Virus record (IMG/VR): IMGVR_UViG_3300023218_000062
Direction: 5' to 3' (one strand)
Origin: a virus
Lineage: Duplodnaviria; Caudoviricetes
Length of the DNA: 64,000 nucleotides
Shown: piece by piece, positions 7,956-27,888 of the stretch
How positions within the stretch are numbered: position 1 is the stretch's first letter
Layout: each line of letters opens with the position of its first letter
Notes under the pieces: generated by a model
Told to the model about the DNA's origin: nothing
The model's database searches: none
The model's input: only the letters and a program-made list of their open reading frames with translations
Program-made: the position numbers and the translations under genes

Positions 7956-7998
7956 TTGACATTGATTTGAATATATGATAAAGGTCCTAGGATAGGGA
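7956..7998 (+). promoter_or_regulatory. Copy of the conserved TTGACA-N17-TAAAGG-N8-TAGG(G/A)(A/T) element
   Basis: TTGACA 7956-7961, TAAAGG 7979-7984, TAGGGA 7993-7998. It is back-to-back with the leftward promoter of 7541..7816. Confidence 0.75.
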
Positions 7999-8139
7999 TT
8001 AAAAACTTTTACATTTCATTAACCTTTATGCTACACTATGTGTCCCGGCTAACCAAGGAAACATACCCTAAGTGGTATGAAATCCCGTAGGGCATAGAGT
8101 TGTTTCAAAAAAATTCGGAAGCATATTTTTAATAATTCA

Positions 8140-8168
8140 TTGACATAACGAATTTCGTAGATTATACT
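8140..8168 (+). promoter_or_regulatory. Sigma70-type promoter
   Basis: TTGACA-N17-TATACT, followed by AGGAG RBS and ATG at 8201. Confidence 0.85.
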
Positions 8169-8200
8169 ATTTATCATAAACCGTAAAATAGGAGCTAAGC

Positions 8201-8947
8201 ATGAAATTTGTCGTATATGAATCTGAGTCTGGTTGTAAGTTTCGTTGCACTGAAGCACAACAGGAGACATTGAGAAAGCTGGAAACCATTGTTAAAGGTG
8301 GTATTGGCACCGTTCATGGTTACACAATGAAATCGGGCCGTGTAAAGCCTGAAACGGCTGATATTCAGTTTCTTACTGCATTCTCTACTGAACGTCTTTA
8401 TAGGCGTCGGATTGCGGCATTGGAATCTATCAGCTATGACGATATTGCTGATAATCTTCCAGACAATCCGAAGCTGACGAAACTGACAGAAGATGAGCGC
8501 AGGGAATTGTTCAACACTCGCCGTCAAAAGGAAATTGCCAGTTATCAGAAGTCTCTTGATGGTGACCGTAGTGACGCACATCGACAAGCACATGATCGTT
8601 GCTACTGCAACATCGGTCAAGGTGTGAAGGTTCATTATCGCACCGAAAAGGATGATGATGGCATTCGCCAGCCGATTATGATTAACGGTTTGCCTGTTGT
8701 AGAATCTATCATGCTGACGATTCTCGAAATCAGGCGTAAGGTAATCGAACCGGGCGAGTACAAGACGGTCAATTCTGGCGCTCCAGTGCTTATTTCTAAT
8801 GCGATCAAGTCTACTATGAATCTTCGGTCAGTTGGTCTCAAAACCCTTTCACTGAAAGAAGATAACTTCGACAGGCTTGTACTGGACAAGACGGAGTTCC
8901 TGCCTGAACAGGTTGAAAGTATCCCGGCAGACTTGTTCATTCGGTAA
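8201..8947 (+). CDS. Hypothetical protein (early region)
   Basis: 248 aa with own promoter and RBS, visibly GC-richer codon usage; no motif recognised. Confidence 0.85.
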   Translation: MKFVVYESESGCKFRCTEAQQETLRKLETIVKGGIGTVHGYTMKSGRVKPETADIQFLTAFSTERLYRRRIAALESISYDDIADNLPDNPKLTKLTEDERRELFNTRRQKEIASYQKSLDGDRSDAHRQAHDRCYCNIGQGVKVHYRTEKDDDGIRQPIMINGLPVVESIMLTILEIRRKVIEPGEYKTVNSGAPVLISNAIKSTMNLRSVGLKTLSLKEDNFDRLVLDKTEFLPEQVESIPADLFIR

Positions 8948-8993
8948 AAGTCTGCCGGGATACTCTAAGAGTCAGTCGTTAATCGGCTGACTC
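8918..8993 (+). terminator. Double hairpin at the 3' end of 8201..8947
   Basis: Perfect 17-bp inverted repeat AGTATCCCGGCAGACTT (8918-8934) / AAGTCTGCCGGGATACT (8948-8964), then GAGTCAGTCG-TTAAT-CGGCTGACTC. Confidence 0.6.
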
Positions 8994-9595
8994 ATTTCTG
9001 AACACTTAGACTGACGGCACTCCAAAAACTTTGTATAGGACGTTGTAAATCTTATCAATGCATTGGTAAATAGCTTTCTTTAATTATAGAACATGAGGAT
9101 TAACAAATGAATGAGCGAAATACATACTCTTTGATGCATGGGCTGGAAAAACTATGATACTAGAACTCTTAAACGTACTCTCGGCAATTGCAGTAATCTT
9201 TGTTACAGGGATGATTGCAGGTGCTAAACTCATACTCAAAGTAAGGGAGAAATAAATAAAATTGAATCAATGTCAATACGGTATTTTGGTTGAAAGTGAT
9301 TATGGTGGAGTAGGTATGGTTGTTGGAATCACGAATAATGCAAGAGGCGTAGAGCTTTCTGTATGCAAGAAAAAATTCATACAATTCCAATAGTTCAATG
9401 GTCTTGTGGAGAAACTTCCAGTATTCATCGCGAAAAAATAAAGAAACTCTAATATTCTCTCGAAAAAAGGGATAAGATAATTCTTATCCCTACCGTAGAG
9501 CCTTTATCATGTATTTTAAATAATGTCAAGAGTTTTTTTAATTGGTTTGTTGAGTATCCTATGGTAATATGTCAAGAGTTTTAATAAAGAAATCA

Positions 9596-9766
9596 ATGAT
9601 GAAAAAGATTTTTGTACTAGTGTGTGTTCTACTTATTGCCGGATGCGTTGAAGATTCCGGTCCAGAAGCATACGATGCCGTTGTGTGTAGCTGTATAAAA
9701 CAAGGCAAAGTCATGTACGTACATAAAACGTTTAGTTTTGTTACCGTTGAATGTGTGGACCCATAA
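9596..9766 (+). CDS. Small predicted lipoprotein
   Basis: MMKKIFVLVCVLLIAG-C: basic N-terminus, hydrophobic core and lipobox LIAGC. Confidence 0.55.
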   Translation: MMKKIFVLVCVLLIAGCVEDSGPEAYDAVVCSCIKQGKVMYVHKTFSFVTVECVDP

Positions 9767-9808
9767 AAAACAGTTGACAATTGTTTTCTCATATGCGATA
9801 CTACCACT

Positions 9809-11191
9809 ATGAATGATACTATCCTAATAGGAAAAGGCGACGAATCCCAAGTACATTTGCTTGGCAAGTATGCTAATCGTCATGGTCTAGTTGCTGGCGC
9901 TACAGGTACTGGCAAGACGGTAACCCTGATGATGTTGGCCGAAGGTTTTTCCCGTATGGGAGTACCGGTATTCATGGCTGACGTTAAGGGTGATATGGCA
10001 GGTTTGGCAATGCAAGGTGAGGATAATCAAAAGATTCGTGGCCGTGCTGAAAAAATTGGTCTTGATGCTTTTGACTTTTCAAGTAATCCGGTATCCTTTT
10101 GGGATTTATGGGATAAGATTGGTAATCCTATCCGAACAAGCGTAGAAAGCATCGGTGCGACATTGATGGCAAGAATGCTTGATGTTAGTGATGCTCAAGA
10201 GGGTGTACTTGATGTTGTATATCATTATGCAAGAGAACGTGGTATGCCCTTTGAGACTCTCACAGATTTTCGTAAACTGTTGAGTCATATGGCGCAGAAT
10301 CGTGAGTCTATCAGTACCGAATATGGACTAATAAGCGCCAATAGTATCGGAGTCATCCAGCGTCGATTACTCACACTGGAAAATGATGGCATTGATAATT
10401 TCTTTGGTACTCCTGCATTAGAGTTGTCTGATTTCATGCGTGAACAAAATGGCAAGGGTGTTATCAATATTCTTTCTGCTGAAAGTCTTATACTTCGGCC
10501 TAGAATGTATTCCACCTTTTTGCTTTGGTTATTGTCAGAGTTATTCGATAAGATGCCAGAAATTGGTGATGTTGACAAGCCTAGGTTGGTATTCTTTTTT
10601 GATGAAGCTCACTTGTTGTTCGATGATTGCTCGGGTGCATTGCTTCGCAGAGTTGAACAGGTAGTAAGATTGATCCGTTCCAAGGGTGTAGGCGTATACT
10701 TTTGTTCGCAGAACCCTGACGATATACCTGAGACTGTCTTAGGACAGCTTGGCAACCGTGTTCAACATGCACTAAGGGCATTCACTCCAAGAGATCAAAA
10801 AGCCGTTAGAGCGGCTGCTGAGACGTTTGTGGATAATCCTAATATCAATGTTAGTGATATTATTACTCGTTTGGGTGTAGGTGAAGCATTAACATCGATG
10901 TTGGATGACAAGGGTATTCCGCAACCAGTCCAGCGTACAATTATTTCACCGCCACAATGCCGTATCGGTTCTATCACTGATGACGAAAGGATGACTATCG
11001 TTAATAATGATTCATTACAGGAAAAATATGCAAAGTCTGAACCTGAACCGGAGCCAATAATTGAACGTGATACAAATGATTATGTGGAACCCGAACCCGA
11101 ACCCGACCCCGAACCCGAACCTGAACCTGAAAGTTTCGGTACAAGGTTCAAGAGAGAATTTTTGAATATACTCTTGTTTCGCAGAACATAA
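9809..11191 (+). CDS. yjgR: DUF853/YjgR HerA-FtsK-family ATPase
   Basis: ANRHGLVAGATGTGKTVTL (Walker A), VPVFMADVKGD, FFFDEAHLLF (Walker B), LIRSKGVGVYF, QLGNRVQHALRAFTPRDQKAV; C-terminal (PE)n tail. Promoter TTGACA-N17-GATACT at 9774-9802. Confidence 0.92.
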   Translation: MNDTILIGKGDESQVHLLGKYANRHGLVAGATGTGKTVTLMMLAEGFSRMGVPVFMADVKGDMAGLAMQGEDNQKIRGRAEKIGLDAFDFSSNPVSFWDLWDKIGNPIRTSVESIGATLMARMLDVSDAQEGVLDVVYHYARERGMPFETLTDFRKLLSHMAQNRESISTEYGLISANSIGVIQRRLLTLENDGIDNFFGTPALELSDFMREQNGKGVINILSAESLILRPRMYSTFLLWLLSELFDKMPEIGDVDKPRLVFFFDEAHLLFDDCSGALLRRVEQVVRLIRSKGVGVYFCSQNPDDIPETVLGQLGNRVQHALRAFTPRDQKAVRAAAETFVDNPNINVSDIITRLGVGEALTSMLDDKGIPQPVQRTIISPPQCRIGSITDDERMTIVNNDSLQEKYAKSEPEPEPIIERDTNDYVEPEPEPDPEPEPEPESFGTRFKREFLNILLFRRT

Positions 11192-11564
11192 TAGCGCACA
11201 ATATCATTTATGGACAAACATACAGAACAATTATTGGATGAACTCGATTCTGCTGTATTTTCTAGTGATACGTTCCTTGATAAGGAATCATTAGAAAGGT
11301 TGCAGTATTATGTAAATCGCTGGCAGCGGGAAAGTCAAAACATTCAAACTTTCTTAGAACAATGGGATGAGGAGGAATAACACAATGATAGATACACTTG
11401 AATTCTTGGCACTGACAATTGAACAGGAAGCAATTAATGCAACACCGTCTATCGCTAATGAAGATTATGATTCTCGTATTGAGAGAATAGAAAGACGTAA
11501 GGAACAAATGATTAGAAATATTGTCTAAAAAAGTCTTGACAATCCTTGATAAATAGTTTAGACT

Positions 11565-11810
11565 GTAGTTGTGATGATAAATCACGTTTGCAAATACCGA
11601 TGACAAAAACGGTGGACAAGAGTACATCGTGGGGCAACCCTACAGTATCGGCCATGCTGATCCGGTGATGGTGACAAAGATATTGTGAGTCGGACGCCAA
11701 GCGACCGGCCCAAAAAAATTCTCGTTAATAGACTACAAGACTGGTCCTCGCATGACCGTCCCGATGAGTAAGAGCAAAGGTCGTTAATTGATTTGCCACC
11801 AGTCTTGTTT
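11565..11810 (+). ncRNA. Candidate structured ncRNA A
   Basis: No plausible ORF; promoter TTGACA(11536)-N17-TAGACT. Stems: GTGAT/ATCAC, CGGTG/CATCG, GGG-GCAA-CCC, GTCG/CGAC, and a 10-bp CAAGACTGGT/ACCAGTCTTG followed by a T-run. Confidence 0.6.
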
Positions 11811-12076
11811 TTTAAACATATAAAGAAGAAAAAATGGGCGGTATATCAGCACCTATAAAAAGCTGGGGATGGACAGCCCCTTAAATGATATATTAACCCT
11901 TTTTTCTTTTCACCTATAGGAGAAAAGGTCCGGTTATTCGGGACTTTTATTTTTCCTACTCTAGAGCCTTTACCATAGATTGAACCTATTGTCAAGAAAA
12001 TTAATTATAAAATTTTTCTTGATTTCTAAATAGAAGTTCGGTAGAATGCACTAAATCGAATAAGAATGGAAATCAA

Positions 12077-12244
12077 ATGAACACGTACAAGAAGATTTCT
12101 CTTTATGGTCCGGGTGGTCGTAACTGTACTTGCTGTGGTCCTGCCCCTAAGCATCGGAAGAAGCATGATCGTATGATTAAGCGTCGTGAGCAGCAGAACG
12201 CTAAGAAGAAGATTGAACGAGAAGTGATGGATGTAAATCTCTAA
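12077..12244 (+). CDS. 55-aa basic, Cys-containing peptide (below the ORF-track cutoff)
   Basis: MNTYKKISLYGPGGRNCTCCGPAPKHRKKHDRMIKRREQQNAKKKIEREVMDVNL; promoter TTGATT-N17-TAGAAT upstream. Confidence 0.7.
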   Translation: MNTYKKISLYGPGGRNCTCCGPAPKHRKKHDRMIKRREQQNAKKKIEREVMDVNL

Positions 12245-12289
12245 AAACCGCTTGACATATATGTTTTTTCAGATATAATACTAAGTATA

Positions 12290-12530
12290 AATAAAGTAGT
12301 TCCTGAGCGTCAGAGGGAAAACGGTGTATGAGATCATCGTGGGGAAAACCCTATAGGCCAAATTTGGAAGACTTAAAATAAAACTCATGAAGAACAAATT
12401 AGACGCAGAATTAGAAACTCTGCAACGATACAGGGTCCGGAGGTAATGCCGGTTAGAATGATAGGATAGCGCCTATCACGTTGCCCCGCTAGGTAATTGT
12501 CAATCCCTAGCCTAGTTTGTTCAATTTTAA
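12290..12530 (+). ncRNA. Candidate structured ncRNA B (shares a core with A), directly upstream of tRNA-Lys
   Basis: Promoter TTGACA(12252)...TATAAT(12274). Core AAAACGGTG..CATCGTGGGGAAAACCCTATAGGCCA (12318-12360). Three-way junction GCAACG/CGTTGC enclosing CCGG/CCGG and GATAGG/CCTATC; further stem GCTAGG/CCTAGC. Confidence 0.6.
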
Positions 12531-12535
12531 TCTCT

Positions 12536-12612
12536 GGGTCTGTGGCGCAATTGGTTAGCGCAGTGGACTTTTAATCCATTGGTTGTGAGTTCGAGTCTCA
12601 CCAGACCCACCA
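12536..12612 (+). tRNA. tRNA-Lys(UUU)
   Basis: GGGTCTG acceptor / CAGACCC, anticodon arm GTGGA-CT-TTT-AA-TCCAT, T-arm GTGAG-TTCGAGT-CTCAC, encoded CCA. Confidence 0.96.
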
Positions 12613-12759
12613 ATTTTAATACATAGAAAGTTCATTGGAGGAAAAAATGGACAACCGAGAAGGGGGTGATGAACTTCATGTATATAATGTAAAAGCGGTG
12701 GATGCAATTAAACCGAATTAACGCTTGACAAATGGAATGAGATATGTATAATAGGTTGC

Positions 12760-13420
12760 AAGTGGTCGTTTCAGAGTGAAGGTTCGACACCCTAACCGAA
12801 TAGTTAATCGGCACCTGTTTAACGATTACTTCATGTTTCCAGCCCGATCTAAATATCGGATATGAAACATAAAGAGGCCCAAAGCTGAAAAGGCAACACA
12901 CCTAGAGTGTGCGGTAGAGCCTAAGCTACCTCCGAGGCGGGAATTTTTTAATATTTGGTTGGTTCATCAAGAACACCTTATAATTCGTTACACCGACCAA
13001 AGTTTTTGACTGTAAGTAGTGATGAAATCTTATAGTCTTATCTTCAACAAGCCGTAATTCAATCGGGCTTTGTACTTGAGATTGAACGAGATATTGCTGG
13101 CTGTAGGGTAATATCATCACGTATCTACAGGGCGAGGCTGCCGTCTTAGCAGTCAACATATAGTCTCAGTCTCGCAGAGACTTTATAAAACACAGTGAGC
13201 GCGAGATTAACTGGAAAACGATAACTGGCAGGTTGGGAGAGCGACCCAATGCCCTTGGCGACAAGGCAGCGTAGTGTGACCGGTTTTTGTAGATAACGTG
13301 CAAACCTTGTTCTAGACGAGTTAGGCTAGGAGACGAGAAACTCCGAAAAATCAAATTCAGGGCACATAGCAAGGGCGCTTGTAGCAGTCTGTGAAGCGCG
13401 GCCCGCGTGGAGACTGCTAT
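12760..13420 (+). ncRNA. Candidate large ornate ncRNA (~660 nt; GOLLD/ROOL-like size and context, family not determined)
   Basis: Own promoter TTGACA(12725)...TATAAT(12747), no credible sense ORF, more than 12 stems including GNRA-capped CCTTG-GCGA-CAAGG, a possible pseudoknot, and a closing TAGCAGTCT/AGACTGCTA; lies next to a tRNA. Confidence 0.72.
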
Positions 13421-13461
13421 TTCAATTTCAATGATACTGTATTTTAAGAGGGTGGTGGAAT

Positions 13462-14056
13462 ATGAAATCAATTGAAGAATGGAGCGCAACACGTTGGATT
13501 TTTACCGCAATGGCATCTATCATCTGCCGGATTGATCGGTGAAAAGGTGGTGGAGAGAGAAGTATTTGAAAATAGTTTTCAATATAATGAAGCACGAAAG
13601 ACCGCCATCGCTACATATGAAGCACAGTTGACTGAAATTAATTCCCAACTTCGAAACAACAATCTTTCAGAACGTGAAAGAAGCAATCTACGCTACTCAT
13701 AGTGTATGGCGCAGTAATCATGGAATGGTTGAAGGTGATTGTCCGTCTATTGGATATGGCATTCTGTATGATACTTCTTTGACCAATCCACAGCGAGCTA
13801 CGGCTCAAGCGGCTGACAAACGATACCTTCTGAATCTCTAGCCACAATTGAACAAGCTGAACCTAATGGTATCTTCGCCAGTAAGAATACGGCAGCTACG
13901 TGGGTATTCTGTGTGGGTAGCGCGGGATCGTTAAATCCAGTATACGTTGAAACCAAGGTTACTGCATATCCGTATTATCCAGTTAATGTTGATTATGAGA
14001 CCAACAGGGTTACTCAAGCTGGTGAATCGAATGTTAATGTGACGGTTAACCGCTAG
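13462..14056 (+). pseudogene. Disrupted/fused remnants of probably two adjacent phage genes
   Basis: RBS + ATG at 13462, then protein-like segments in alternating frames: LSSAGLIGEKVVEREVFENSFQY..., THSVWRSNHGMVEGDCPSIGYG..., and SLATIEQAEPNGIFASKNTAATWVFC...VNR*. Confidence 0.55.
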
Positions 14057-14086
14057 ATCAATTGAACGGTAGTCAATATAATAATG

Positions 14087-14116
14087 AAACAGGGGGCTAG
14101 CCCCCTGTTTCTTTTT
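14087..14116 (+). terminator. Intrinsic terminator
   Basis: AAACAGGGGG-CTAG-CCCCCTGTTT followed by CTTTTT. Confidence 0.8.
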
Positions 14117-14170
14117 CGACATAATGTAAGTTTTTCTTGACATTTACGAAAATGATGGTATATTGAAACC

Positions 14171-14974
14171 ATGATGACACTAATCAAAAACCGAGAAATG
14201 TACGATACTTTCGTTAAATTCCTTCCAGAGTTGGAGCGTGACGAAGTATATTTTCTTTCATTGTCAGCACGTAATAAGTATCTGACCGAAGATGAACGTG
14301 AAGCCTATTCTCTCAGCAGAACTGAAATGTTTTCCCGCCATATTGCACATGATAAGGAAGGCATCGAATACGCTATCAAGAAGATGGAAGCCGAACTAGA
14401 AGTAAAGACTACTCGTAGTGGTCATCGTATTCCAGAGAAAGCATTGGTAGTATACTTTAATATTCATCCTTCTTCAATGACCAGAGCGTATACTTCATTC
14501 AAAGATCAAATGAACGCACATTACGATGAAATCGTTAAATCATTGATGAAGGGCTCGAATCCACATTACCATCCATTCTTAGGAATGCGTACTAAGTTGA
14601 TGAATCATATACAAAAATCCTCTTCAAGAAAGGAATGGGTGGATATAGATATTGATATTGATGCACTTGATGAAGAAACCGCATTGCGATATTCTGCATC
14701 GATAGCTAATCCTTTATTCATGCATTCTATCAATAATGTAAGAATCAAGACTCAGGGTGGTGTTCATCTTTTAGTGAAACGGAGCGATCTTAACACGAAA
14801 CCGATGAATATTCCATTGCATAAACTGATAGGAAACATTCATAAAGAACTCAAAGGGCTTGGCGGGGAATGTAAATTTAACAACAACGCCATGGTACCAT
14901 TACCGGGAACTAATCAAGCTGGTAAATTGGTAGTTATTCATGATACAACTCTTGACAATTTAGTTTTAATTTGA
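14171..14974 (+). CDS. Hypothetical protein, possibly AEP/PrimPol-like
   Basis: Own promoter (TTGACA 14137). WVDIDID (DxD) followed by KTQGGVHLLV (GxH) matches the spacing of AEP motifs I/II. Confidence 0.4.
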   Translation: MMTLIKNREMYDTFVKFLPELERDEVYFLSLSARNKYLTEDEREAYSLSRTEMFSRHIAHDKEGIEYAIKKMEAELEVKTTRSGHRIPEKALVVYFNIHPSSMTRAYTSFKDQMNAHYDEIVKSLMKGSNPHYHPFLGMRTKLMNHIQKSSSRKEWVDIDIDIDALDEETALRYSASIANPLFMHSINNVRIKTQGGVHLLVKRSDLNTKPMNIPLHKLIGNIHKELKGLGGECKFNNNAMVPLPGTNQAGKLVVIHDTTLDNLVLI

Positions 14975-15011
14975 TATGATTTGGTTTTACAATATACAAA
15001 CAGGAAAGTAA

Positions 15012-15493
15012 ATGAGTGCTGGAACACACTATTCACTAGCATTTGATTTAAATAAAATGCAAGCGCTATGTAAAGAAGCAGCGTATAAATTAAATACATA
15101 TCAAAAAGAAAATAAGTGTGATATTGTTTTCATTTATTCTGGAATGTCCGGGATAGCTACAGCAACAGCATTAGCTCATTATTTATATTGCGATTATGAT
15201 ATTGTTGCGCATATGATCTATGTACGTAAAGAAAATGATAACAATCATAACGACTCAATAGTTGAATGGAGCGAGAATAGCCAAAGATATAATAAAGCTG
15301 CTATTTTTTTATTGATGACCTTATTGAAAGTGGAAATACATTTAATCGTACACGAAATTATGCAAGCAGGGCACAATTTATAAAAGCGAAAAAACTTACT
15401 AATAAACATATTGGAACAATTCTTATTGAATTTGATTTAATGTTTAAAATTCCTCAAAAACATGTAATACTTGATAATTATAACCGAGGATAG
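15012..15493 (+). CDS. Type I phosphoribosyltransferase-fold protein (frameshift at T7 run 15304-15310)
   Basis: Shifting frame in the T-run gives IDDLIESGNTF, a PRPP-binding-loop motif. Upstream are SGMSGIATA and YVRKE; the frame ends at TAG 15491-15493. Confidence 0.6.
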
Positions 15494-15497
15494 ATAG

Positions 15498-15916
15498 ATG
15501 TTTGACGAAAGAACTTTTTATGGTAATATTGTTACAGTGCATGTTAGAATTAACAATATCGTGAATGTTAAACATAACATATATGATTATGAGCACGAAA
15601 TCTCGTTAAATGATGCTATCAAAGAGGGTAAAATTTGCAGTGAGGATAATACAAAACAATATTATTTTTCCTCACCTATAATAGAATGGCTGAAAACTTT
15701 TAAATAACGGAAAAGCTTATGAAAGAATATGGATATACACTGTATACAAATACAGGTGAAAAAATTAGAGGAACAGTGTCATGCAAAAACGAACAAATTG
15801 CAAATGGTACTGTAAAGAGTATCAAGAATGCTCGCCAAGATGTTGAATTTGCTACCATTGATAGTCTTGATGTACCTTGTGATTATGATTGGGATGAAGA
15901 TTGTAAGGCATGGTAG
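15498..15916 (+). CDS. Two small hypothetical ORFs (15498-15707, 15719-15916)
   Basis: Co-oriented and closely spaced, with an RBS-like GAGG upstream. Confidence 0.5.
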
Positions 15917-15994
15917 TCAAGAATATTTTAATAACTACTTGACAAAACTCAAATTTAAAGGTATAGTTAAAAAATCACATAATACAACATAGGA

Positions 15995-16708
15995 GTGATG
16001 AAAATGCAAACACAAACACTAGAAACACTAAAAAATCATGGTTTAACTATCAACGAAAATGAACTGGATTCCGAGGATTTGGTTTCTCAGTTGGGTAGTA
16101 TGGATGTAGGTGATCTGTGGACTATTGTAGAAGAACTTAGCGGTGATGAAGCCATCAGAATTGATGATAATGAACAAGTGCAAAGTTTGGCACTAAGTTA
16201 TGCTCTAGTTGATGCCTTTGAAAATGATCTTGATCAAATCAGTCAGGCTGAAATTGATGCTGCGATACAGAAGGCTACAGAATCTACTAATAAGCTAACA
16301 GATAATATGCCCGAAAAAGAAGATGAAGCTGAAACTGAACCCAACGAAACCCAAGTTGGGGTCAAGACTAATCGAAAGACTCTTGTCAAAAGTTTGGTAG
16401 AAGAAAACCCTGATGCATTAGCGGATGAAATTGTGGACATGGCAGCGGAAGCTGATCCTGATATGAATACAACAACCGCCAAACAGTATTACTATAACGC
16501 CCGAAAGGAACTAGGATTGAAAGCTGTTGGAAAATGTGGTCGTAAGCCGTCCGATACTATGGACCGCATTAAGGCCATACTGGATGGCAACCTTGATGTT
16601 CCCAAATCTGAAATGGTTGAAAAAATTGTATCAGAAATTGGCGTCAAGGAAGGTACAGCATCTACGTATTATTCCAAGGCTAAAAAGCAGTTGAAACAAA
16701 ACGCATAA
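15995..16708 (+). CDS. Acidic N-terminus + tandem HTH-like protein (paralog of 23119..23853)
   Basis: Promoter TTGACA(15939)-N17-TATAGT and AGGAG RBS. Repeated motif [AT]A..YY.[NK]A[RK]K.L shared with 23119..23853. Confidence 0.8.
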   Translation: MMKMQTQTLETLKNHGLTINENELDSEDLVSQLGSMDVGDLWTIVEELSGDEAIRIDDNEQVQSLALSYALVDAFENDLDQISQAEIDAAIQKATESTNKLTDNMPEKEDEAETEPNETQVGVKTNRKTLVKSLVEENPDALADEIVDMAAEADPDMNTTTAKQYYYNARKELGLKAVGKCGRKPSDTMDRIKAILDGNLDVPKSEMVEKIVSEIGVKEGTASTYYSKAKKQLKQNA

Positions 16709-16726
16709 AACCAAAAGGATAATTAA

Positions 16727-16921
16727 ATGAGAAAGAATTTTCCGGAACGTAAAAAAGCTCGTCGCCGTCAGGCTCTTGAACAAGTAAATGCACGCATCAA
16801 GCGTGGCGGAAAGGCTGCTAACCCTGATGAACGTGAAAGTAAGGGCATCACGGGGAACAAGGAAGCGCAACGTCTTGAACAGGCTAAGTATGAAAAAGCT
16901 CTACTAGAAAAAAGAGTTTAA
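16727..16921 (+). CDS. Small basic hypothetical protein
   Basis: AAAGGA RBS; K/R-rich 64 aa. Confidence 0.65.
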   Translation: MRKNFPERKKARRRQALEQVNARIKRGGKAANPDERESKGITGNKEAQRLEQAKYEKALLEKRV

Positions 16922-19308: not shown

Positions 19309-19311
19309 GAC

Positions 19312-19356
19312 TTGACAAAACCCTCGATAGTTGATACTATTATAACTATCGAGGGT
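19312..19356 (+). promoter_or_regulatory. Sigma70 promoter overlapped by a 13-bp perfect inverted repeat (operator/terminator-like)
   Basis: TTGACA(19312)-N17-TACTAT(19335); ACCCTCGATAGTT (19320-19332) / AACTATCGAGGGT (19344-19356). Confidence 0.7.
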
Positions 19357-19524
19357 GTTTTAAGAGTGACTTTAACACTGGCCTTTCATTTTAGCTTTCG
19401 CTCACATTTTAGATTGTTGCCGGTCACACTTTCCTCGGGGGATATTGGATGAATTGATGAATGGTGCGGGTCAATAACCCAATCCTGAAATCACGAAGAT
19501 CAAGTTAGAGTCACTCTTAAAACA
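19356..19524 (+). ncRNA. Candidate ~170-nt RNA closed by a 21-bp stem
   Basis: TGTTTTAAGAGTGACTTTAAC (19356-19376) pairs with GTTAGAGTCACTCTTAAAACA (19504-19524) with one G-U pair; starts just after a promoter and contains no ORF. Confidence 0.5.
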
Positions 19525-20061
19525 TTTTTAAACATCGGAGCTATGTAATGTCTAAACGACTCGAAGCATTAAGCGAAAAGGTTCGAAAAGGTATTCCCAT
19601 CAACTTTGCAGAAGGCATCGAAGTTATTGAATATCAGGAGCGGTTGCAGGCAGACCGAGAGCGAAAACGTAACAAGACTGTAATAGGCAGACTAATAAAC
19701 TGGATTCAACATAGATACGGGATATAAAAATGAGAACTCTAGAACAAATCGAACAGGAATATCGGAGAGTTAGTGATATTCTTTCATGGGAACCTGTTAC
19801 GGAAGAAGGTTTGTTAGAACTTCCCTTTCCAGACGTCGTATGAATAACAGATTTGTGCGAGGTCGCCTTACTCGGGATCGTTCCGGTACTGTTAGTGTCA
19901 ACATCGATCATACCATGTTGGCATGTAATTTAAATGATGCAATCAGAGCACTACACACCGAAGCAGGTGAAGTGTATTTGAACAATGTTTGACAAATCTG
20001 ACAAAATGAGGTTGAAGATGAATTTGAATGGGATGATTTTATTGAAAGTATTCGTATTAGT

Positions 20062-21145
20062 TTGATAGATAAATTCTCTTCTTTTCGTGTAACTGATAAG
20101 TGGTTGGATCGTGAATCACATGCAATTCTTGAAAACGATTTCGGAACCGTAACGGTTAATGAATATTGCGGCATGGCTGCTATTAGTTTTGTTCCTGTTG
20201 ATTATTCTACCGTTGCACCATATCGGTATGAAACACTTCGTCAAGAAAATTTGTGCTTCGGTTGGATGCGTCAAATTGAACATACATGGAGAAAAATTAT
20301 TGGTCAACATGGAACTTCATTTAATTTACATGGATTTATGTCGAATGGTGTGGGAGTATTTGTAAGAGAATAATTTAACAAATACCCCTTGACAAATCTG
20401 AAATCTATTGTATAATTGTTTCATCATTTTTATAAAGGAACCATAATGTCACCTGATGCAGAATATGTTTTTCATCATATTGACTAATTCAATCGTATGT
20501 GGCATACTATTAAAAATCTATCTAATGGAGATATTAAATGTTTACACTTCAAGATTGCTTCAATGCTGCATGGCACCATTTTATCGAAAATCAAAATCCT
20601 CCATCGGTCTCGTTAGGGGTATGGAGCGATGGTAAATACAAACCAGTGTATAATAATGGCACAAATAAATGTGCAATCGGTCTATTGACTGATGATCTTA
20701 AATATTGGGATGGTAGCATTCAAGAGTTATTTACGGAACAGAAAAAGGAATTCAAGGATCTCATACAACAGTTTAATGTTAATTCAGTCATAGAGGGTAT
20801 TGAAGCATGGCAGGAAGCGCAAAATAGGCTCCATGATGATCTTATTAACTACACAACTGGTGAATGGGCTTGTTCATTTCAAGAGCGTAAAGATAGCTAT
20901 ATTCAGTTTGCGCAGGAATTTGCTTTGAAAATCCCGAATGAACATTAACCATGAACATTAATGAAGTTTACGAAAATTTGTGCATTAGGGATTCCAGAAA
21001 TCCGATGTATGATGCATTGAAGGGTCCATATGATACCATGCCTGACCCTAGAATCAATTGTGCGTGCGACAATTGTTTCTATGGTAGAGACAGATTAGCT
21101 CTTGAAATTATTCGATTGCGTATGAAATTGAATTTATATCATTAG
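20062..21145 (+). CDS. Small early hypothetical ORFs (20062-20373 probably a truncated start, 20538-20948, 20951-21145)
   Basis: Co-oriented with sigma70 promoters (e.g. TTGACA ~20389...TATAAT) and GGAG RBS; 20951 ORF has CACDNC. Confidence 0.55.
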
Positions 21146-21420
21146 CGGTCAACAAACTTTTCGATACCTGATATAAATATATCATCATACATGAGGACTT
21201 TCTGGAAACTGGTGTGATACTGGCATTATATTATTAGTTAAGCGCCCTTATACCCCCTCAAACCCCCTAACGTATCGTTAGGGGTTTAATGTATCTCATT
21301 CTTAACAGTATCCCGTTTAATGTACAGAATGAGATATATTATTATATTTTCAAATTTTTATTGCATTGTTTGGCTAGCCATGATACAATATACTCACATT
21401 CACTAATCAGAGAAACTTAA

Positions 21421-21699
21421 ATGTCTGCCGAAGTTGTCAACGGACGTTTCATGGTTTGTGTTGATTGCGCTATGTTCATCGCTAATGATGATCTTAGCAG
21501 ACTTGATTACCATTTTCTTCCTGATGAAGCGGAACAGCGTGAAATCGCTATCCGTAATAGTGTTCAACATCAAATCAATCAGGGAAATCATATTGTTATG
21601 AGAAATTCTGATGATGATATTGAATTTTCCAAAAGTCCTTGTGATTGTTGTGCCGATCATTTACATGGATATCGTCACCATGCGGTTTTACTTAAATGA
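21421..21699 (+). CDS. Small Cys-motif hypothetical protein
   Basis: CVDC and CDCC motifs; shared leader CACATTCACTAATCAGAG upstream. Confidence 0.7.
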   Translation: MSAEVVNGRFMVCVDCAMFIANDDLSRLDYHFLPDEAEQREIAIRNSVQHQINQGNHIVMRNSDDDIEFSKSPCDCCADHLHGYRHHAVLLK

Positions 21700-21713
21700 G
21701 AACCATTCTCATT
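21695..21713. promoter_or_regulatory. Fur-box-like palindrome (repeated by the tandem array)
   Basis: AATGAGAA-CCA-TTCTCATT; 11/14 match to the 7-1-7 TGATAAT-N-ATTATCA Fur consensus. Confidence 0.5.
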
Positions 21714-21783
21714 TGACAATAAGAACCATTCTCATTTGACAATAAGAACCATTCTCATTTGACAATAAGAACCATTCTCATTT
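21699..21783. repeat. Tandem repeat, 23-bp unit AGAACCATTCTCATTTGACAATA x3.7
   Basis: Identical units at 21699, 21722, 21745 and a partial unit at 21768; no spacers. Confidence 0.97.
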
Positions 21784-21984
21784 AACCTTATCTCGATTCA
21801 ACCCTAGATAGTAACATGTAACATCCTGTAAATGCAAGACTTTTTTCATCCTATCCTAGGGCCTTTATCATATCCTGATACCGTTGTCAAGTAATTTTTA
21901 AAAAATTAATTTTTAAATTTCTATTGACAACGCTTTATATCTAAGCGATAATATTTGCACATTCACTGATAAAGGTAACTCGTT

Positions 21985-22293
21985 ATGCGAAAGATTGAAC
22001 AACAAATGATTGAAGCCATTCAAAACAAGCGCAATTGGAAGTCTGGCAATACTTCGGTCGAATACTTACCAGAAATTGAAACAGTTACGCGGGCACGTAT
22101 TGAAATGGCAAAAGTTTATCTTTTCGGTAACTGTATTGCTACCTATTCTTATTATAATAATACGGCTTATATCGTTGCCAGTACGCTTGTAAAATGGCCT
22201 ACTGTTACAACCTTTTCTCGCCTTCGTGCTCTTGGGTTTGATCCTAAATCGGAACTCAAGAGAATTGCAAATAACATACAGGATGCAGCATGA
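21985..22293 (+). CDS. Hypothetical early protein
   Basis: Promoter TTGACA(~21924)-N17-GATAAT, shared leader, AAAGG RBS. Confidence 0.8.
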   Translation: MRKIEQQMIEAIQNKRNWKSGNTSVEYLPEIETVTRARIEMAKVYLFGNCIATYSYYNNTAYIVASTLVKWPTVTTFSRLRALGFDPKSELKRIANNIQDAA

Positions 22294-22448
22294 AAAACAA
22301 TTATCGCAAACTAACCAAGAAACAATGGTATGACCTTGGCGGCTTTGCCACTCCATCATTGTTTCGTCGTGACCGTGGCAAGGGATGGGAATACTATCAG
22401 GATACAGACCACCCTGCTAGTGATTATAACTATAGTGAATAAAGAATC

Positions 22449-22471
22449 GGGGCTTCGGCCCCTTTTCTTTT
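22449..22471 (+). terminator. Intrinsic terminator with cUUCGg tetraloop
   Basis: GGGGC-TTCG-GCCCC followed by TTTTCTTTT. Confidence 0.9.
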
Positions 22472-22606
22472 ATCCTACTCTAGAGCCTTTATCATACAAT
22501 CAAAACAATTGCAACCCATAAATGAAATAATTTATTTTAAATAAGTATTGACTCTTCTGAAAATATCAGTATAATTGTTTACATCATTTCAATAAGGGAA
22601 ATAGTT

Positions 22607-22910
22607 ATGGAAAATGTAAATTTTGCTGGTTTTGAGTCCACCGTTGAATTTGCCACGTATTCGAATGGGCGCACCGCTATTCAGCTTTGTGATGCAAACG
22701 ATGGCCAGCCAATTGCTACGGCAACAGTCAACCTTCCCGATGAACCGATGGCTGAGGATGAGGCTGATATCAAGAACTATAGCGAAAACTCTGGCATATT
22801 AGATGCTTTAATAGACGCTGGGGGTGATTGCCCGCCCGCATCGTGAAATCCCTAGGGGCTTCGTCACCATACCAGTCTGCACCCTTCTGGTCAATCCAAC
22901 TCAATCCTAG
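22607..22910 (+). CDS. Hypothetical early protein (probable +1 indel in G5 run 22820-22824)
   Basis: Removing one G gives ...LIDAGVIARPHREIPRGFVTIPVCTLLVNPTQS*, ending just before the terminator at 22929. Confidence 0.6.
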
Positions 22911-22928
22911 TCAGTGAATGGTCTAGGT

Positions 22929-22954
22929 GGGCACGGTTTTCCGTGCCCTTTTTT
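22929..22954 (+). terminator. Intrinsic terminator
   Basis: GGGCACGG-TTTT-CCGTGCCC followed by T6. Confidence 0.9.
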
Positions 22955-23118
22955 AATCCTACTCTAAAGCCTTTATCATATCCTATCCCATGGGGCAACA
23001 ACGTTCGACGGAACTATGTCACAAAAAATTTTACCAATAATTACTAAACCCCTTGCAATCTCTCGAAAAATAATTATAATAGATTCTAACATTCACTAAA
23101 CAAAGGATAGTAGATATT

Positions 23119-23853
23119 ATGCCAAGTCAAGAAATCGTTGAAATTTTCCGGAATCATGGCGTGAACATCACTGCCAACGACAAGAGTACGAAACTGGTCA
23201 GGGTGCTCAAAGAAGAAAACCCTGCATCACTATGGCCCATACTTGAAGAGTTTACTAACAACAAGCCAATCGGCCTTGATGGCTGCAATGAAAGGATGCA
23301 TCATTACACGCTGCAATATGCACTGGTAAGGGCGTTTGAGCAGGACCGTACCAGTATCACTCAAGAAGATATTGACGCTGCCCGTCAAGACGCTGCAAAA
23401 CTCGCTGAATCTCTTTCTACAGGTTCATCTACTCGCGCTGATACAGTAGTCGAAAACGATGATATTGATGATACAGAAAATACCACCAAGGTCGCCAAAA
23501 CTCGAAAACGTGATGCTAGCTTGTATCCATTGATTCTTTCACTTGTCGAAAGCAACATGAAGGCAACACCTAACGAAATTCTCGATATGGTGAAAAAATC
23601 AAAGCCCGACGTTAACGAGTCCACTGCTAAAGTGTACTACAGCAAGGCACGCAATGAACTCAACCTCCCGAAGATCGGTAGGCGTGGCCGTAAGAATTCA
23701 GGTATCTATGACAAGATCAAGGCATTGATTGAAACTAACCCGGCCGCTTATCGTGCTGAAATGATCGAACGCATCGTTAATGAACTTGGAGCCAAGACAG
23801 GCACCGCTCAAGCCTACTACAGCAAGGCAATGAGAGAATTGAGCCTAACCTAG
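23119..23853 (+). CDS. Tandem HTH-like protein (paralog of 15995..16708)
   Basis: TAKVYYSKARNELNL and TAQAYYSKAMREL; own promoter, leader and terminator (23870-23902). Confidence 0.85.
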   Translation: MPSQEIVEIFRNHGVNITANDKSTKLVRVLKEENPASLWPILEEFTNNKPIGLDGCNERMHHYTLQYALVRAFEQDRTSITQEDIDAARQDAAKLAESLSTGSSTRADTVVENDDIDDTENTTKVAKTRKRDASLYPLILSLVESNMKATPNEILDMVKKSKPDVNESTAKVYYSKARNELNLPKIGRRGRKNSGIYDKIKALIETNPAAYRAEMIERIVNELGAKTGTAQAYYSKAMRELSLT

Positions 23854-23929
23854 CTTAAGATCAAAAACTATTCAGGGGGCATCCTATGCCCCCCTGAATT
23901 TTATCCTATTCTAATGCCTTTAACTCATC

Positions 23930-24055
23930 AATATAATCAACATCTATCAATCAATCAGAATTCATGCACAAATCGGATTTACAATTATTTTCAGAAATCG
24001 GTTGACGATCCTGAAAATATCTGTATAATCCTTAATTACATTCACTGATAGGAGA
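23930..24055. repeat. 126-bp promoter/leader direct repeat, copy 1 (copy 2 24456-24581; 74-bp partial copy 24966-25039)
   Basis: Identical sequence AATATAATCAACATC...TTGACGATCCTGAAAATATCTGTATAAT...ACATTCACTGATAGGAGA. Confidence 0.95.
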
Positions 24056-24061
24056 TTACTT

Positions 24062-24337
24062 ATGTATGACCAAGATAACTTGATCGAGATTGGAAACGAA
24101 GCCGTCAAGGCAATCGAAGCGAGCATCGAAGATATGTATCGTGCCATGGAAGACATTAACACGCATTTACTCGGAATGTATGATGCGTTACCTGATTCAA
24201 CCATCAACCATAACGTGAAGGCACTGGACGGCCTTATACCAGCACTGGACGGCCTTATTATTAAAAACGTAAGACCCGGAGTTCTGGAACTTGAACACGA
24301 AATTCATAAACTCAAGCTCAAATTAAGCAAATTGTGA
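24062..24337 (+). CDS. Hypothetical early protein
   Basis: Driven by repeat copy 1 with AGGAG RBS; terminator GCCCCGCT-GTCA-AGCGGGGC-T7 at 24373-24399. Confidence 0.8.
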   Translation: MYDQDNLIEIGNEAVKAIEASIEDMYRAMEDINTHLLGMYDALPDSTINHNVKALDGLIPALDGLIIKNVRPGVLELEHEIHKLKLKLSKL

Positions 24338-24588
24338 ATGAATGAATAGGGTTCCGGCCCTTAGCTCACTTTGCCCCGCTGTCAAGCGGGGCTTTTTTTA
24401 TCCTATTCTAATGCCTTTAACTCATCGTCATCCATTTGTCAATACCCTAAGCAAAAATATAATCAACATCTATCAATCAATCAGAATTCATGCACAAATC
24501 GGATTTACAATTATTTTCAGAAATCGGTTGACGATCCTGAAAATATCTGTATAATCCTTAATTACATTCACTGATAGGAGAAAACAAG

Positions 24589-24843
24589 ATGCAGGAACGA
24601 TTCGACAAGATCATGGAAGCCGGAAACAACGGTCGGTTTTTTTCTGTTCGCTTCATCAAGCGGTCCAATGGTGCGGAACGTTTCATGAACTGCCGTCTTG
24701 GAGTCACGAAACACCTCAAGGGCGGTAACAAGGCATACGATGATAAGGCTCACAATCTTGTCACCGTTTACGATCTTCAAGCCGAAGGGTATCGCTGCAT
24801 TCCATTGGAAAGCATCTTTGAACTTAACGGTGAACCTATCTGA
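24589..24843 (+). CDS. Small beta-rich phage protein (SH3/WYL-like barrel possible)
   Basis: FFSVRFIKRSNGAERFMNCRLGV...VYDLQAEGYRCIPLESI; driven by repeat copy 2. Confidence 0.75.
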   Translation: MQERFDKIMEAGNNGRFFSVRFIKRSNGAERFMNCRLGVTKHLKGGNKAYDDKAHNLVTVYDLQAEGYRCIPLESIFELNGEPI

Positions 24844-24864
24844 TAGGTTCAATCGTATCATCAG

Positions 24865-24895
24865 GAGGATGCGAATCATTCGCATCCTCTTTTTT
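24865..24895 (+). terminator. Intrinsic terminator, duplicated at 25958-25989
   Basis: GAGGATGCGAAT-C-ATTCGCATCCTC followed by a T-run; identical in both places. Confidence 0.9.
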
Positions 24896-25050
24896 ATCCT
24901 AGGGCCTTTAACTCATCATCAACCATTTGTCAAGAACTTTCGACGGAACTGCATTACATAAAAAAATTTACAATTATTTTCAGAAATCGGTTGACGATCC
25001 TGAAAATATCTGTATAATCCTTAATTACATTCACTGATAAGGGTAACACG

Positions 25051-25938
25051 ATGAACGGAAATCAAAAGATTCACAAGATTGTAGCGCAAGCTTTTATAGA
25101 CCAAATCGAAGCAGGCATGGCGGATGGTAAATGGACTGCTCCATGGGCGAAGTTTGCCACAGACTTTCCGACCAATGCAGTGACAAAAAAGACATACCGT
25201 GGTTTCAATATCTTCTCATTGTGGAGCGCTGGATTCTCATCTCCGTATTGGGCTACCTTTAAGCAATGGAAGTCGATTGATGCCACGGTCAAGAAAGGAT
25301 CAAAAGGTTCATTGGTTGTTTTCTGGAAAATCATCGATTCCAAGACTCGATTCGACGCTAACGGCAATCCTGAAAAGGTTCCCTTCCTGCGATTCTCGAA
25401 CGTATTCAATGCCGATCAAGTTGACGGCTGGACCGCTCCGACACTGGAAGATCGTCCTACCCTTTCAACAAATGAAATTCACGCTGAATGCGACGCAATG
25501 ATCGCAGCAACAGGCGCTGAAATCCAGCATGGCGGCAATATGGCCTGTTACATTCCAAGCCATGACCGCATCCTGCTTCCTGAATTCAACGCCTTCCATG
25601 ATGCGGATTCATACTATCAGACCGCATTCCATGAACTGGCGCATTGGACGGGTCATGCTTCACGACTGGACCGCAATCTTTCAACCCGGTTCGGAAGCAA
25701 TGCATATGCTTTGGAAGAACTGCTAGCAGAACTTACAGCAGCCATTGTGGGCGTTCGTATGGGCATTGATGTCACTACCCGCATGGACCATGCAAAGTAT
25801 GTGAAGAGCTGGCTCACAGCGCTTCGTGAACAGCCTGAATGCCTGATGCATATCGCCAGCAAGGCAAGCAAGGTAGCGGATTACCTGATCGAAGGCGAAG
25901 CAGGTGAAACCGAACAGTATCAAGCGCAAGCCGCTTGA
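25051..25938 (+). CDS. ardC: ArdC-family antirestriction protein (ssDNA-binding DUF1738 + zincin-like domain)
   Basis: YRGFNIFSLW, WATFKQWK, VKKGSKGS, VFNADQVDG, ACYIPSHDRI.LP, FHELAHWTGH..RLDR, YALEELLAEL. Confidence 0.93.
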   Translation: MNGNQKIHKIVAQAFIDQIEAGMADGKWTAPWAKFATDFPTNAVTKKTYRGFNIFSLWSAGFSSPYWATFKQWKSIDATVKKGSKGSLVVFWKIIDSKTRFDANGNPEKVPFLRFSNVFNADQVDGWTAPTLEDRPTLSTNEIHAECDAMIAATGAEIQHGGNMACYIPSHDRILLPEFNAFHDADSYYQTAFHELAHWTGHASRLDRNLSTRFGSNAYALEELLAELTAAIVGVRMGIDVTTRMDHAKYVKSWLTALREQPECLMHIASKASKVADYLIEGEAGETEQYQAQAA

Positions 25939-27888
25939 TTAATCATTAGGTACCATTGAGGATGCGAATCATTCGCATCCTCTTTTTTTATCCTACTTTA
26001 GACCCTTTAACTCATCATCAACCATTTGTCAAGAATTTTCAATTACAACTTTATTCTATATCCGCTTGACTAAACGCTATGGTGCATGGTACTATATACT
26101 CGCATTCACTGAAACATTAGAAATCAAATACAATTCCGATATCATTCAGAGCGAAACCGATTTGGTAGACTCTCTTATCAGCGATACCACGTTCGCTTCA
26201 AAACTGCAACGCAAACCAAACTAGCATATCATATTCATTACAATGACCAATGCGACAAAGTGGTTCGATCTGCTATGTTATGGCGCTATAGATCACTTGG
26301 AAAGTAATTGACAATCCGAAAAGTGTCTGTATAATATAGACTACAGCCTAAGCAAACTAAACAGGTATGAAGATGAATGATTCATTGCAACATCAACAAA
26401 TGGAATGGAATGATCTTGAAGAGAGAGTTACTCATCATGATACCATGAAAGAACTCTCACCGTTAGAGTATCAATGGTTGAAAGATTATCGAATGCACTT
26501 CAATAAGATGTGATGTATAACTATACAGTGGAGATATATACAGTACCATAAACACCATATAGAAAAACTGAAAACAAGTTTGGGATTTTTTTTCTTCTGT
26601 ATATTCATACAGTTGACAGGGGCGTACGGGCCGTGCTAAGCAATTGAGCAAATATTGACCACTTTTTTATATAGAAAGTGTCTCGAAAATTTTGATTAGT
26701 CCTACAGGAGAATATTAGACCCTTTTTTATTTTTTATTATTATTTTTTATCATTTGGTAGGATTTTTCACGATTTATAATAATTTGTGATCGTTTTTCAT
26801 AAGTTGTGGCTGTTTTTCATGAATATTGATAGACACAATTTTATTGTATAAACACAATACAATGTTTTGGCATTGATTCTGCTACACAGAATACAAGTTT
26901 CGGTTTTGTATATATGAAAGGGGGGGGTCTTTTATATAAGGGTTTACATATTATCGAAATTTTTTTCTCAGAGTTTTTATCTGGTATGACTTATACTATA
27001 AAAATATTGAAAGATGTTAAAAATCAGTCTATAAATTTGTATAATTATTATATGAAAGTTTTATTTGATGTGATAAACCAGCCGAGGATATTAGTGGTTT
27101 AGATAATAAGTTATCTGCTAAATCTTCTAACAGTGATTCTAAGAAAGCTTCTGATAATGATCCTAAGAAGGAGTCTTCCAATTTGATAGATCGTATTAGT
27201 ACTACACTTAAAAACAATACGTTTTCAGTTAATTTATATGATATGGTAGATTGGTCTGAGCTAGAGGATGGAAGAAACTGAGATGCAATAGAGGGACTAT
27301 CATCAAGAGGGGTCGGAAAATCTGAGAACAGCGAATATGCTTGAAGCTTATATAGAAGGATTGCGTTTAAATAATGCCCTACGAAAAAAGGTATAACATC
27401 TGAGCACATATCTGCAGCAACTACATATTTAAAAGAGCATTTCAATAGTCTGTGGAATTAAGTTTCACCAGACACATTTTTCGTTATACCACTTTGCTAC
27501 TACTGTAGCTACTATAATTTTTGAATTATTTTTTACTTTACAGATAAAGAAACATGGTCCATTATTCGCTACAACGAATTTACCGTAACGTGTAAAGTTT
27601 CTATTCACACAGAACGGTGATTGTTCCCATTTGTCACAAATTCTTCCTTCTTTAACTTTTCTGAAATGATTGAATTCCACATATATTTGGAAGATGCTTT
27701 ACTACTAAGCGTTCCAAGAATCTATTGTATGCGTGATGTGTAACACGAATATTTTTTATTTTAGCGTTTAGCACACAGTTTTTAAGAGAGGTAGTGTTTA
27801 TTATATTTTTCTTTATTTTAAAAATTATTAGTTATATAATTTACGATTAGTATTACAGCAATTGTTGAAGGGGATTGTCAAGCTTCTT

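Follow-up and report, generated by a model that had tools for sequence, protein, structure and literature searches.

A promoter-like box repeated among early genes

The stretch of DNA analyzed here (the window) comprises 64,000 nt of the viral record IMGVR_UViG_3300023218_000062 (Duplodnaviria; Caudoviricetes), and our subject is a short promoter-like box that recurs between approximately 7.9 and 26 kb. The window has a GC content of 32%. The proteins identified in it are RNA ligase 1, a DUF2201 protein, a HerA-like ATPase, and an ArdC-like protein, and tRNAs are scattered along it. An uncultured T4-like phage fits this content, and the RnlA and Kyano_Gp96 matches agree. Between 7.9 and 26 kb, the plus strand carries numerous small genes without known function, most of them with their own near-consensus sigma70 promoter and many with a terminator made of a hairpin and a T-run. 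Pfam and other protein scans recognized no function for the genes of these cassettes. Two islands of raised GC (0.40–0.44 vs. about 0.32), at 8–14 kb and 22–26 kb, contain all ten copies of the box.

A sequence-only reading had described ten copies of an element of the form TTGACA-N17-TAAAGG-N8-TAGGAT, and TAAAGG is indeed found at all ten places: on the plus strand at 7979 and on the minus strand at 9506, 11972, 21867, 22491, 22975, 23922, 24419, 24910, and 26009. We call this element the class II box, or simply the box, and the ordinary early promoters beside it class I. The spacing claimed for it holds in nine of the ten copies, where TTG(A/C)(C/A)(A/C) lies exactly 17 bp upstream of TAAAGG. 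The looser pattern TTG-N20-TAAAGG occurs 11 times in the window, against a mean of 0.74 and a maximum of 4 in 200 order-2 Markov simulations, and TTGACA-N17-TAAAGG occurs 7 times, against 0.005 in order-2 Markov simulations. Two of the 11 looser sites (8293, plus strand; 49272, minus strand) are chance matches within genes. A chance origin of the array as a whole can be excluded.

For comparison we used three phage lineages, all reached through homologues of one protein of 244 aa (23119–23853), which range from 98% down to 44% identity in a protein search. The closest relative, L138, has 95–99.9% DNA identity to the window and carries six box copies. The lineage of L140 to L146, with 63% identity in the 244-aa protein and a GC content of 45%, contributes twelve distinct copies, and L149 (59% identity in that protein) contributes one. 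No copy was found in L147, a 3.8-kb sequence of tightly packed genes whose protein is 48% identical. At 63% and 59% protein identity, in L140–L146 and L149, the box is retained while the sequence downstream of it differs. The earlier reading had staked its claim on conserved spacing in related phages, and the spacing is retained in these relatives.

What is conserved is an A-rich stretch running into cTTGACA, a spacer of 17 or 18 bp, (T)RTGn directly before TAAAGG, and then a GC-rich triplet. Judged by its letters, this unit is a sigma70 -35 box with an extended -10 box that lacks the T at -7. Over the three lineages there are 27 distinct copies, and TAAAGG and G-14 are invariant in them. Across 26 distinct copies, information peaks at TTGAC, G-14, and TAAAGG and is low in the spacer, which bears out the claim that the spacer sequence varies. 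We class the box as extended -10 because G-14 is invariant and TG occupies -15/-14 in 23 of 26 copies. The -35 hexamer is TTGACA in 19 of 26, the others being TTGACT, TTGACG, TTGCAA, TTGCAT, TTGCCC, TTGCGC, and TTGGCA, and within it TTG is better conserved than ACA. The spacer measures 17 bp in 23 copies and 18 bp in three (L140 2571, 3674, and 6524); in all three of the latter, TGn remains adjacent to TAAAGG. When the hexamer was left free in the search, the true copies all still had TAAAGG. Fixed in the box are T-12, A-11, A-10, A-9, G-8, and G-7, followed by a GC-rich discriminator, with the A-rich flank upstream. The -10 box has A-11 but falls short of the canonical form, and since position -7 is G in all 27 copies, we speak of a sigma70-like element and not of a canonical promoter.

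The third part of the proposed element did not generalize. TAGGAT is restricted to the window lineage, and L140 has GCTGAAT in place of N8-TAGGAT; its upstream half is as in the window (A-rich/cTTGACA, 14–15 bp, TGn, TAAAGG). A small palindrome, YYCTAGRR, and a TAGRR-TAGGA repeat also stand beside the box in the window lineage; the palindrome, like the TAGGAT tail, is absent from L140 and L149. Across lineages, the box has no dyad symmetry.

Several other identities for the unit were considered and rejected. Alternative -10 registers, at 15, 16, or 18 bp, lose A-11, and a small antisense open reading frame or Shine–Dalgarno (SD) site on the box strand is contradicted by start codons that are unconserved between copies. 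Middle promoters of T4 have a MotA box, TGCTT, centered at -30 and lying 11–13 bp from a TAnnnT -10 box, with no -35 box. The box described here has a consensus TTGACA, and TGCTTGA appears only in the L140 subtype and at the wrong distance. A T4 late promoter (TATAAATA at -10, no -35 box) does not match TGnTAAAGG with a conserved -35 box either. An integron attC site is an imperfect inverted repeat at the 3' end of a promoterless cassette and is accompanied by an integrase. In contrast, the box lacks dyad symmetry when lineages are compared, the cassettes all come with promoters of their own, and no integrase was found among the proteins scanned. Neither a tRNA nor an Rfam RNA was found at the box sites.

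Anatomy and exchange of the cassette junctions

Along the gene strand, each junction begins with the end of a gene, a GC-rich hairpin, a T-run, 10–15 nt, and the reverse complement of TAAAGG-nCA(Y). It continues with 14–15 bp, the reverse complement of TTGACA, an AT-rich linker of 22–60 bp, a class I promoter, a shared leader, and the next gene. In 22 of the 27 copies, an A-run and a GC-rich hairpin (-12 to -20 kcal/mol) lie 15–21 nt downstream of the box and form, on the gene strand, the terminator of the upstream gene. Of the other copies, some mark a divergence of gene blocks (window 7979; L140 6524 and 17170), and the rest have weak hairpins before them. Six window copies lie directly behind a gene-strand hairpin and T-run in a terminator scan, so the placement after an intrinsic terminator was correctly seen, as was the orientation away from the TTGACA-N16-TATAAT promoter of the next gene. 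The box always opposes the gene whose terminator adjoins it; in L140 it is on the plus strand where the genes are on the minus strand and on the minus strand where they are on the plus.

Every copy stands back to back with a class I promoter, with 22–60 bp between the two -35 boxes. Class I promoters read TTGACA-N14-TG-TATAAT, with a spacer of 16 bp and a TG that abuts the hexamer, so they have no canonical extended -10 box. The shorter spacer and the absence of a canonical TGn are what make the two classes distinct. One example, at 24991–25018 on the plus strand, has TTGACG-N14-TG-TATAAT, the 16-bp spacer, and the shared leader CATTCACTGATA; other class I partners of boxes are found at 21924, 22548, 23053, 24002, and 24528. 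In L140, all long terminator–promoter junctions have a box.

The window copies vary around this plan. The first (7956–7998, plus strand; TTGACA-17-TGA-TAAAGG...TAGGGA) lies at the divergence of minus- and plus-strand gene blocks and has no terminator after it. The remaining copies are on the minus strand. The second (9487–9529) has a TAGGGAT tail that contributes to a hairpin followed by a T-run on the box strand (9468–9491), the third (11953–11995) has TGG-TAAAGG and faces a bidirectional hairpin at 11929–11942, and the fourth (21848–21890) is back to back, at 33 bp, with the class I promoter at 21924–21952. The fifth (22472–22514), with the -35 box TTGCAA, faces the terminator at 22449–22462 and stands 33 bp from the class I promoter at 22548–22575; the sixth (22956–22998), with TTGCCC, faces the terminator at 22929–22948. 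The seventh (23903–23922) is degenerate and faces the hairpin at 23875–23893. It had been described as lacking the -35 box, and it does so because about 26 bp are deleted relative to its near-twin at 24419; its L138 orthologue retains TTGACA. The eighth (24400–24442) faces the terminator at 24373–24392. The ninth (24896–24933), singled out earlier as an N3 variant, has a single TAGRR (TAGGAT) unit instead of two and faces the terminator at 24863–24891. The tenth (25990–26032) faces the terminator at 25958–25982, 3' of the ArdC-like gene. A truncated remnant, TTGACA-N8-TAGGAT without TAAAGG, occupies 9556–9575 on the minus strand.

At the second copy (9468–9506), the stem that includes the TAGGGAT tail is followed by TTTTTT on the box strand, and the gene strand has no T-run at this place. 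Any transcript from this copy would be about 35 nt long because the hairpin and T-run lie on its own strand. As a general product, a discrete small RNA ending at the hairpin was rejected, with an antisense-side T-run in just two to four copies, and so was a conserved noncoding RNA beyond the divergence-point copies, where similarity ends about 13 nt past the box. The 9-mer TGATAAAGG in the leader and ribosome-binding site of gene 21985 (21968–21976) equals the box core on the opposite strand (21867–21875). The pair makes an inverted repeat around the class I promoter; it is absent from the L140 lineage and is probably a coincidence. An anti-SD role, in which the complement of this 9-mer would pair with the leader of gene 21985, was rejected, as L140 leaders have ACGGAGA with no complementarity.

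Parts of the junction other than the box are also common to the lineages, namely the hairpins, the linker (e.g., the stretch GAACTTTCGACGGAAC...), and the class I spacer CTGAAAATATC, and the whole junction can therefore be regarded as one homologous composite module. The window and the L140 lineage have almost the same sequence for one terminator hairpin (GAGGATGCGAAT...), whose stem ends GGGG...CCCC in one L140 copy. That this hairpin is shared with a lineage of 45% GC suggests movement of cassettes between phage lineages. Among the early cassettes of L140 is a gene (10808–11152) with a Ribosomal_L12 Pfam match.

The hairpin and box, 40–90 bp of near-identical sequence, are a site of cassette insertion, deletion, conversion, and inversion between related phages. 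A comparison of the window with L138 reveals one relocated cassette, two that have given way to a different one, and one new cassette, with alignment segments that start or end inside the box. For example, L138 8608–8733 corresponds to window 21741–21867, yet L138 8708–8895 corresponds to window 24394–24581. Between L140 and L141, which are 99.8% identical, 18 of the 34 mismatches fall in 9059–9160, in a run that extends from the edge of TAAAGG through the spacer, the -35 box, and the linker to the next promoter. In L146, an inverted copy of L140 4968–5522 (L146 1–554) is joined to L140 9003 onward. The two phages, otherwise near-identical, are thus distinguished by an inverted segment of about 4 kb, with its ends in two modules of terminator and box that have opposite orientations. 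The inverted segment includes the point at which the gene blocks diverge.

We found no close cultured relative of the window. Megablast and blastn searches against cultured phages, T4-like phages among them, gave no homology to the junction modules, and tblastn of the 244-aa protein against cultured phages gave no match. Exact-pattern scans of public viral and metagenome contig collections returned single chance-like matches and no multi-copy contig, and a related-locus search with three window proteins found no locus. Window 21694–21783, directly 3' of gene 21421–21699, contains about four tandem repeats of a 23-bp unit, GAACCATTCTCATTTGACAATAA. This repeat region is the sole part of 21–27 kb that matches cultured phages, with 76% identity to the terminal-repeat (DTR) region of the T5-like Salmonella phages Kenya-K36 and K42. 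Elsewhere in the window, ARAGORN places a tRNA-Phe with the unusual anticodon AAA at 5333–5412, for which the Rfam score is just 41.8 bits.

What the box may do

The best explanation is that early gene cassettes are joined by a conserved bidirectional sigma70 promoter module, of which the box forms the antisense half. The sequence-only reading had left a choice among a divergent promoter, a parking site for RNA polymerase, and an operator for a regulator; the conservation pattern favors an RNA polymerase (sigma70) site over the operator. It points to a sigma70 holoenzyme site on four counts: the stronger conservation of TTG relative to ACA, the way TGn keeps its place beside the hexamer with spacers of 17 and 18 bp, the presence of T-12 and A-11, and the A-rich flank. 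With its -35 box and TG added to these features, the box has all the determinants for tight binding of the host holoenzyme. It deviates from the sigma70 rule only at A-10, A-9, G-8, and G-7 and in the GC-rich discriminator, and from what is established about -10 recognition, open complexes should be difficult to form or brief. T-7 and A-11 are the flipped bases in -10 recognition, and TGn together with a consensus -35 box can compensate for a poor -10 box.

Our preferred interpretation, to which we give a probability of roughly 0.5, is that the box is a terminator-coupled antisense sigma70 promoter with a weakened -10 box that damps and insulates each strong cassette, and that its conserved sequence serves as a crossover site. 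The box would recruit RNA polymerase, including enzymes that have just terminated 15–20 bp away, and low-level or conditional antisense transcription would begin there and run back through the terminator. The missing T-7 and the GC-rich discriminator would weaken the open complex, and for this reason firing would require either polymerases kept on the DNA after termination or local negative supercoiling generated by the divergent class I promoter. As a consequence, a very strong upstream cassette would be damped, and each cassette would be transcriptionally separated from its neighbor. According to Harden et al. 2020 (PMC6978322), polymerase remains on DNA after intrinsic termination, and promoter-like sequences close by often let it restart on the opposite strand; the same paper notes that modules of a terminator and an antisense promoter suppress the upstream gene.

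A number of observations count against a weakened antisense promoter. G at -7 and -8 should strongly impair formation of the open complex by sigma70. The complete invariance of TAAAGG is the main difficulty: no plain weak-promoter model accounts for it, since many hexamers would do for such a need. Most copies lack a terminator for an antisense RNA, which means that a defined product is not to be expected. At divergence points, three or four copies face no terminator at all, one copy persists despite the loss of its -35 box, and many terminator–promoter junctions at 12–21 kb of the window have no box. A stronger version of the idea, which we hold only tentatively, is that TGnTAAAGG marks a dedicated, sequence-specific class of antisense promoter, both self-limiting and insulating, beyond many early-gene terminators. 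Such a promoter might fire only when fed by just-terminated polymerases, when the divergent early promoter supplies supercoiling, or once an AsiA-like switch that spares extended -10 promoters has taken place. If this were true, each mobile cassette would bring its own negative feedback and shut-off wherever it lands.

Other functions could be served by the same sequence. At a nonproductive parking or decoy site, polymerase would bind tightly without completing melting for want of T-7, and so shield the adjacent class I promoter from read-through or sliding polymerases or keep a local stock of enzyme, with no RNA made. The anatomy is the same as for an antisense promoter, the invariant G-8 and G-7 with the GC-rich discriminator fit a site selected against opening, and the box stands back to back with class I promoters even at divergence points without terminators. 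We nonetheless think parking unlikely: any non-T at -7 would cripple the site, yet TAAAGG never varies, and an elongating polymerase normally displaces one that is bound at a promoter. By an estimate of distances, an enzyme covering DNA to about +20 would also stall the incoming polymerase before the hairpin was transcribed and would give termination no help. A functionless fossil must also be considered, in which one half of an ancestral bidirectional promoter is homogenized through recombination between junctions. Whole junction modules, with hairpins and linkers, are indeed common to the lineages and exchanged by conversion, and one copy without a -35 box and one truncated remnant persist. 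However, homogenization would unify spacers too; in fact, spacers and flanks differ widely while the hexamers, G-14, and spacing are fixed in three lineages, and we regard this as the least probable of the alternatives.

The invariance of TAAAGG and the mapping of crossovers to the box could also indicate an operator or recombination site for a phage DNA-binding protein, with the likeness to a promoter being secondary. A candidate is the 244-aa protein, which is conserved, has no family assignment, and occurs in all three box-carrying lineages, although this co-occurrence is built in because the relatives were found via that protein. Its predicted model (13 homologues, mean pLDDT 78) begins with a helical domain at the N terminus, followed by a disordered linker and a C-terminal pair of three-helix bundles, both ending in YYSKA. 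Foldseek gave weak matches only, the best being the two-part helix-turn-helix (HTH) DNA-binding domains of SETMAR (E-value 0.095) and PAX6. As a regulator of the box, this protein is a lead and not evidence. The palindrome and repeat beside the box in the window lineage would suit an operator, but L140 and L149 have neither the palindrome nor the TAGGAT tail. A spacer that can be 17 or 18 bp while TGn stays attached to TAAAGG, and a TTG that is better conserved than ACA, follow promoter logic, and among the proteins scanned there was no recombinase. On balance, an operator appears improbable. We find it quite improbable, too, that the box is a promoter class for a phage-modified polymerase, whether an AsiA-like factor silences class I and spares class II or a phage factor reads AAAGG. 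AsiA of T4 inhibits -35-dependent promoters and not extended -10 promoters. As class II alone possesses a canonical extended -10 box, a block of this type would spare it and silence class I. Once the early phase was over, antisense transcription would increase and contribute to shutting off the early cassettes. The classes differ exactly in TGn register and spacer length, and the invariance of AAAGG suggests a reader beyond sigma region 2 alone. On the other side, strict conservation of TTGACA shows that the -35 box is used, and none of about 20 small early open reading frames has an AsiA, MotA, or sigma Pfam match, which is weak evidence given that 64 kb of the genome are covered.

Comparison with known systems

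The box resembles extended -10 (TGn) sigma70 promoters in having TG at -15/-14, a hexamer that starts with TA, and 17–18 bp to the -35 box. Typical promoters of that kind have weak -35 boxes. The box differs in its consensus -35 box and in the replacement of the defining T-7 by G in every copy, which makes it a defined sequence for asking how sigma70 handles G at -7 when the -35 box is perfect and TGn is present. In phage lambda, the Po promoter of the oop RNA sits just past the 3' end of a gene, reads back into it, and lowers its expression; it has its own terminator and an ordinary -10 box. The class II box appears to be placed in a similar way, beyond the 3' end of a gene and pointing back into it. 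Unlike oop, which is a single locus, the box recurs at many junctions between cassettes and lacks an antisense terminator of its own.

Antisense promoters beside bacterial terminators are commonly regarded as unconserved noise. Here, no part of a mobile cassette junction is better conserved across diverged phages than the box, and its -10 hexamer violates the sigma70 rule identically each time. Terminator-coupled antisense control and recapture of polymerase are so far known mainly in vitro and from synthetic constructs. If active, the box would be a natural, portable case of one or the other, and it could supply a compact insulator part for synthetic biology. The sequence-only reading did not recognize a described architecture, and this was right only in part. 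The architecture is not wholly new: the box is the antisense half of a PeSL-like cassette junction and matches the layout of Harden et al. (2020), in which an intrinsic terminator is followed a few bases downstream by a promoter-like sequence on the opposite strand (PMC6978322); our box begins about 15–20 bp beyond the T-run of the terminator. Such modules, including synthetic terminator/antisense-promoter modules cited in the same paper, have been proposed to recapture terminated polymerase (PMC6978322). Antisense promoters in bacteria are also said there to be poorly conserved (PMC6978322). The box, which we know from sequence, departs from that case as the best-conserved part of the junction, with a fixed nonconsensus -10 box, at many junctions, and in three lineages.

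The junction as a whole is of the PeSL type. In promoter-early stem-loop (PeSL) cassettes, recombination between units gives rise to mini-circles. As far as term searches in two papers show, PeSL cassettes of T4-type phages combine a sense promoter with a stem-loop (Arbiol et al. 2010, PMC2839356; Comeau et al. 2014, PMC4122927). They and the junctions described here are intergenic modules that recur and that combine an early sigma70 promoter close to consensus with an AT-rich flank and a terminator hairpin rich in GC. In each system the modules border genes without known function in the variable early region of a T4-like phage, and where close relatives differ, the breaks lie at the modules. 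Neither PMC2839356 nor PMC4122927 uses the word "antisense." Against these descriptions, the junction of our phage adds a more strictly conserved backward box, the invariant TGnTAAAGG, between the terminator and the sense promoter, and thereby a component to the PeSL model of accessory-gene shuffling in T4-like phages. The box is an added, invariant antisense element of the known PeSL-type cassette junction: real, conserved, and promoter-shaped, with a function that we infer.

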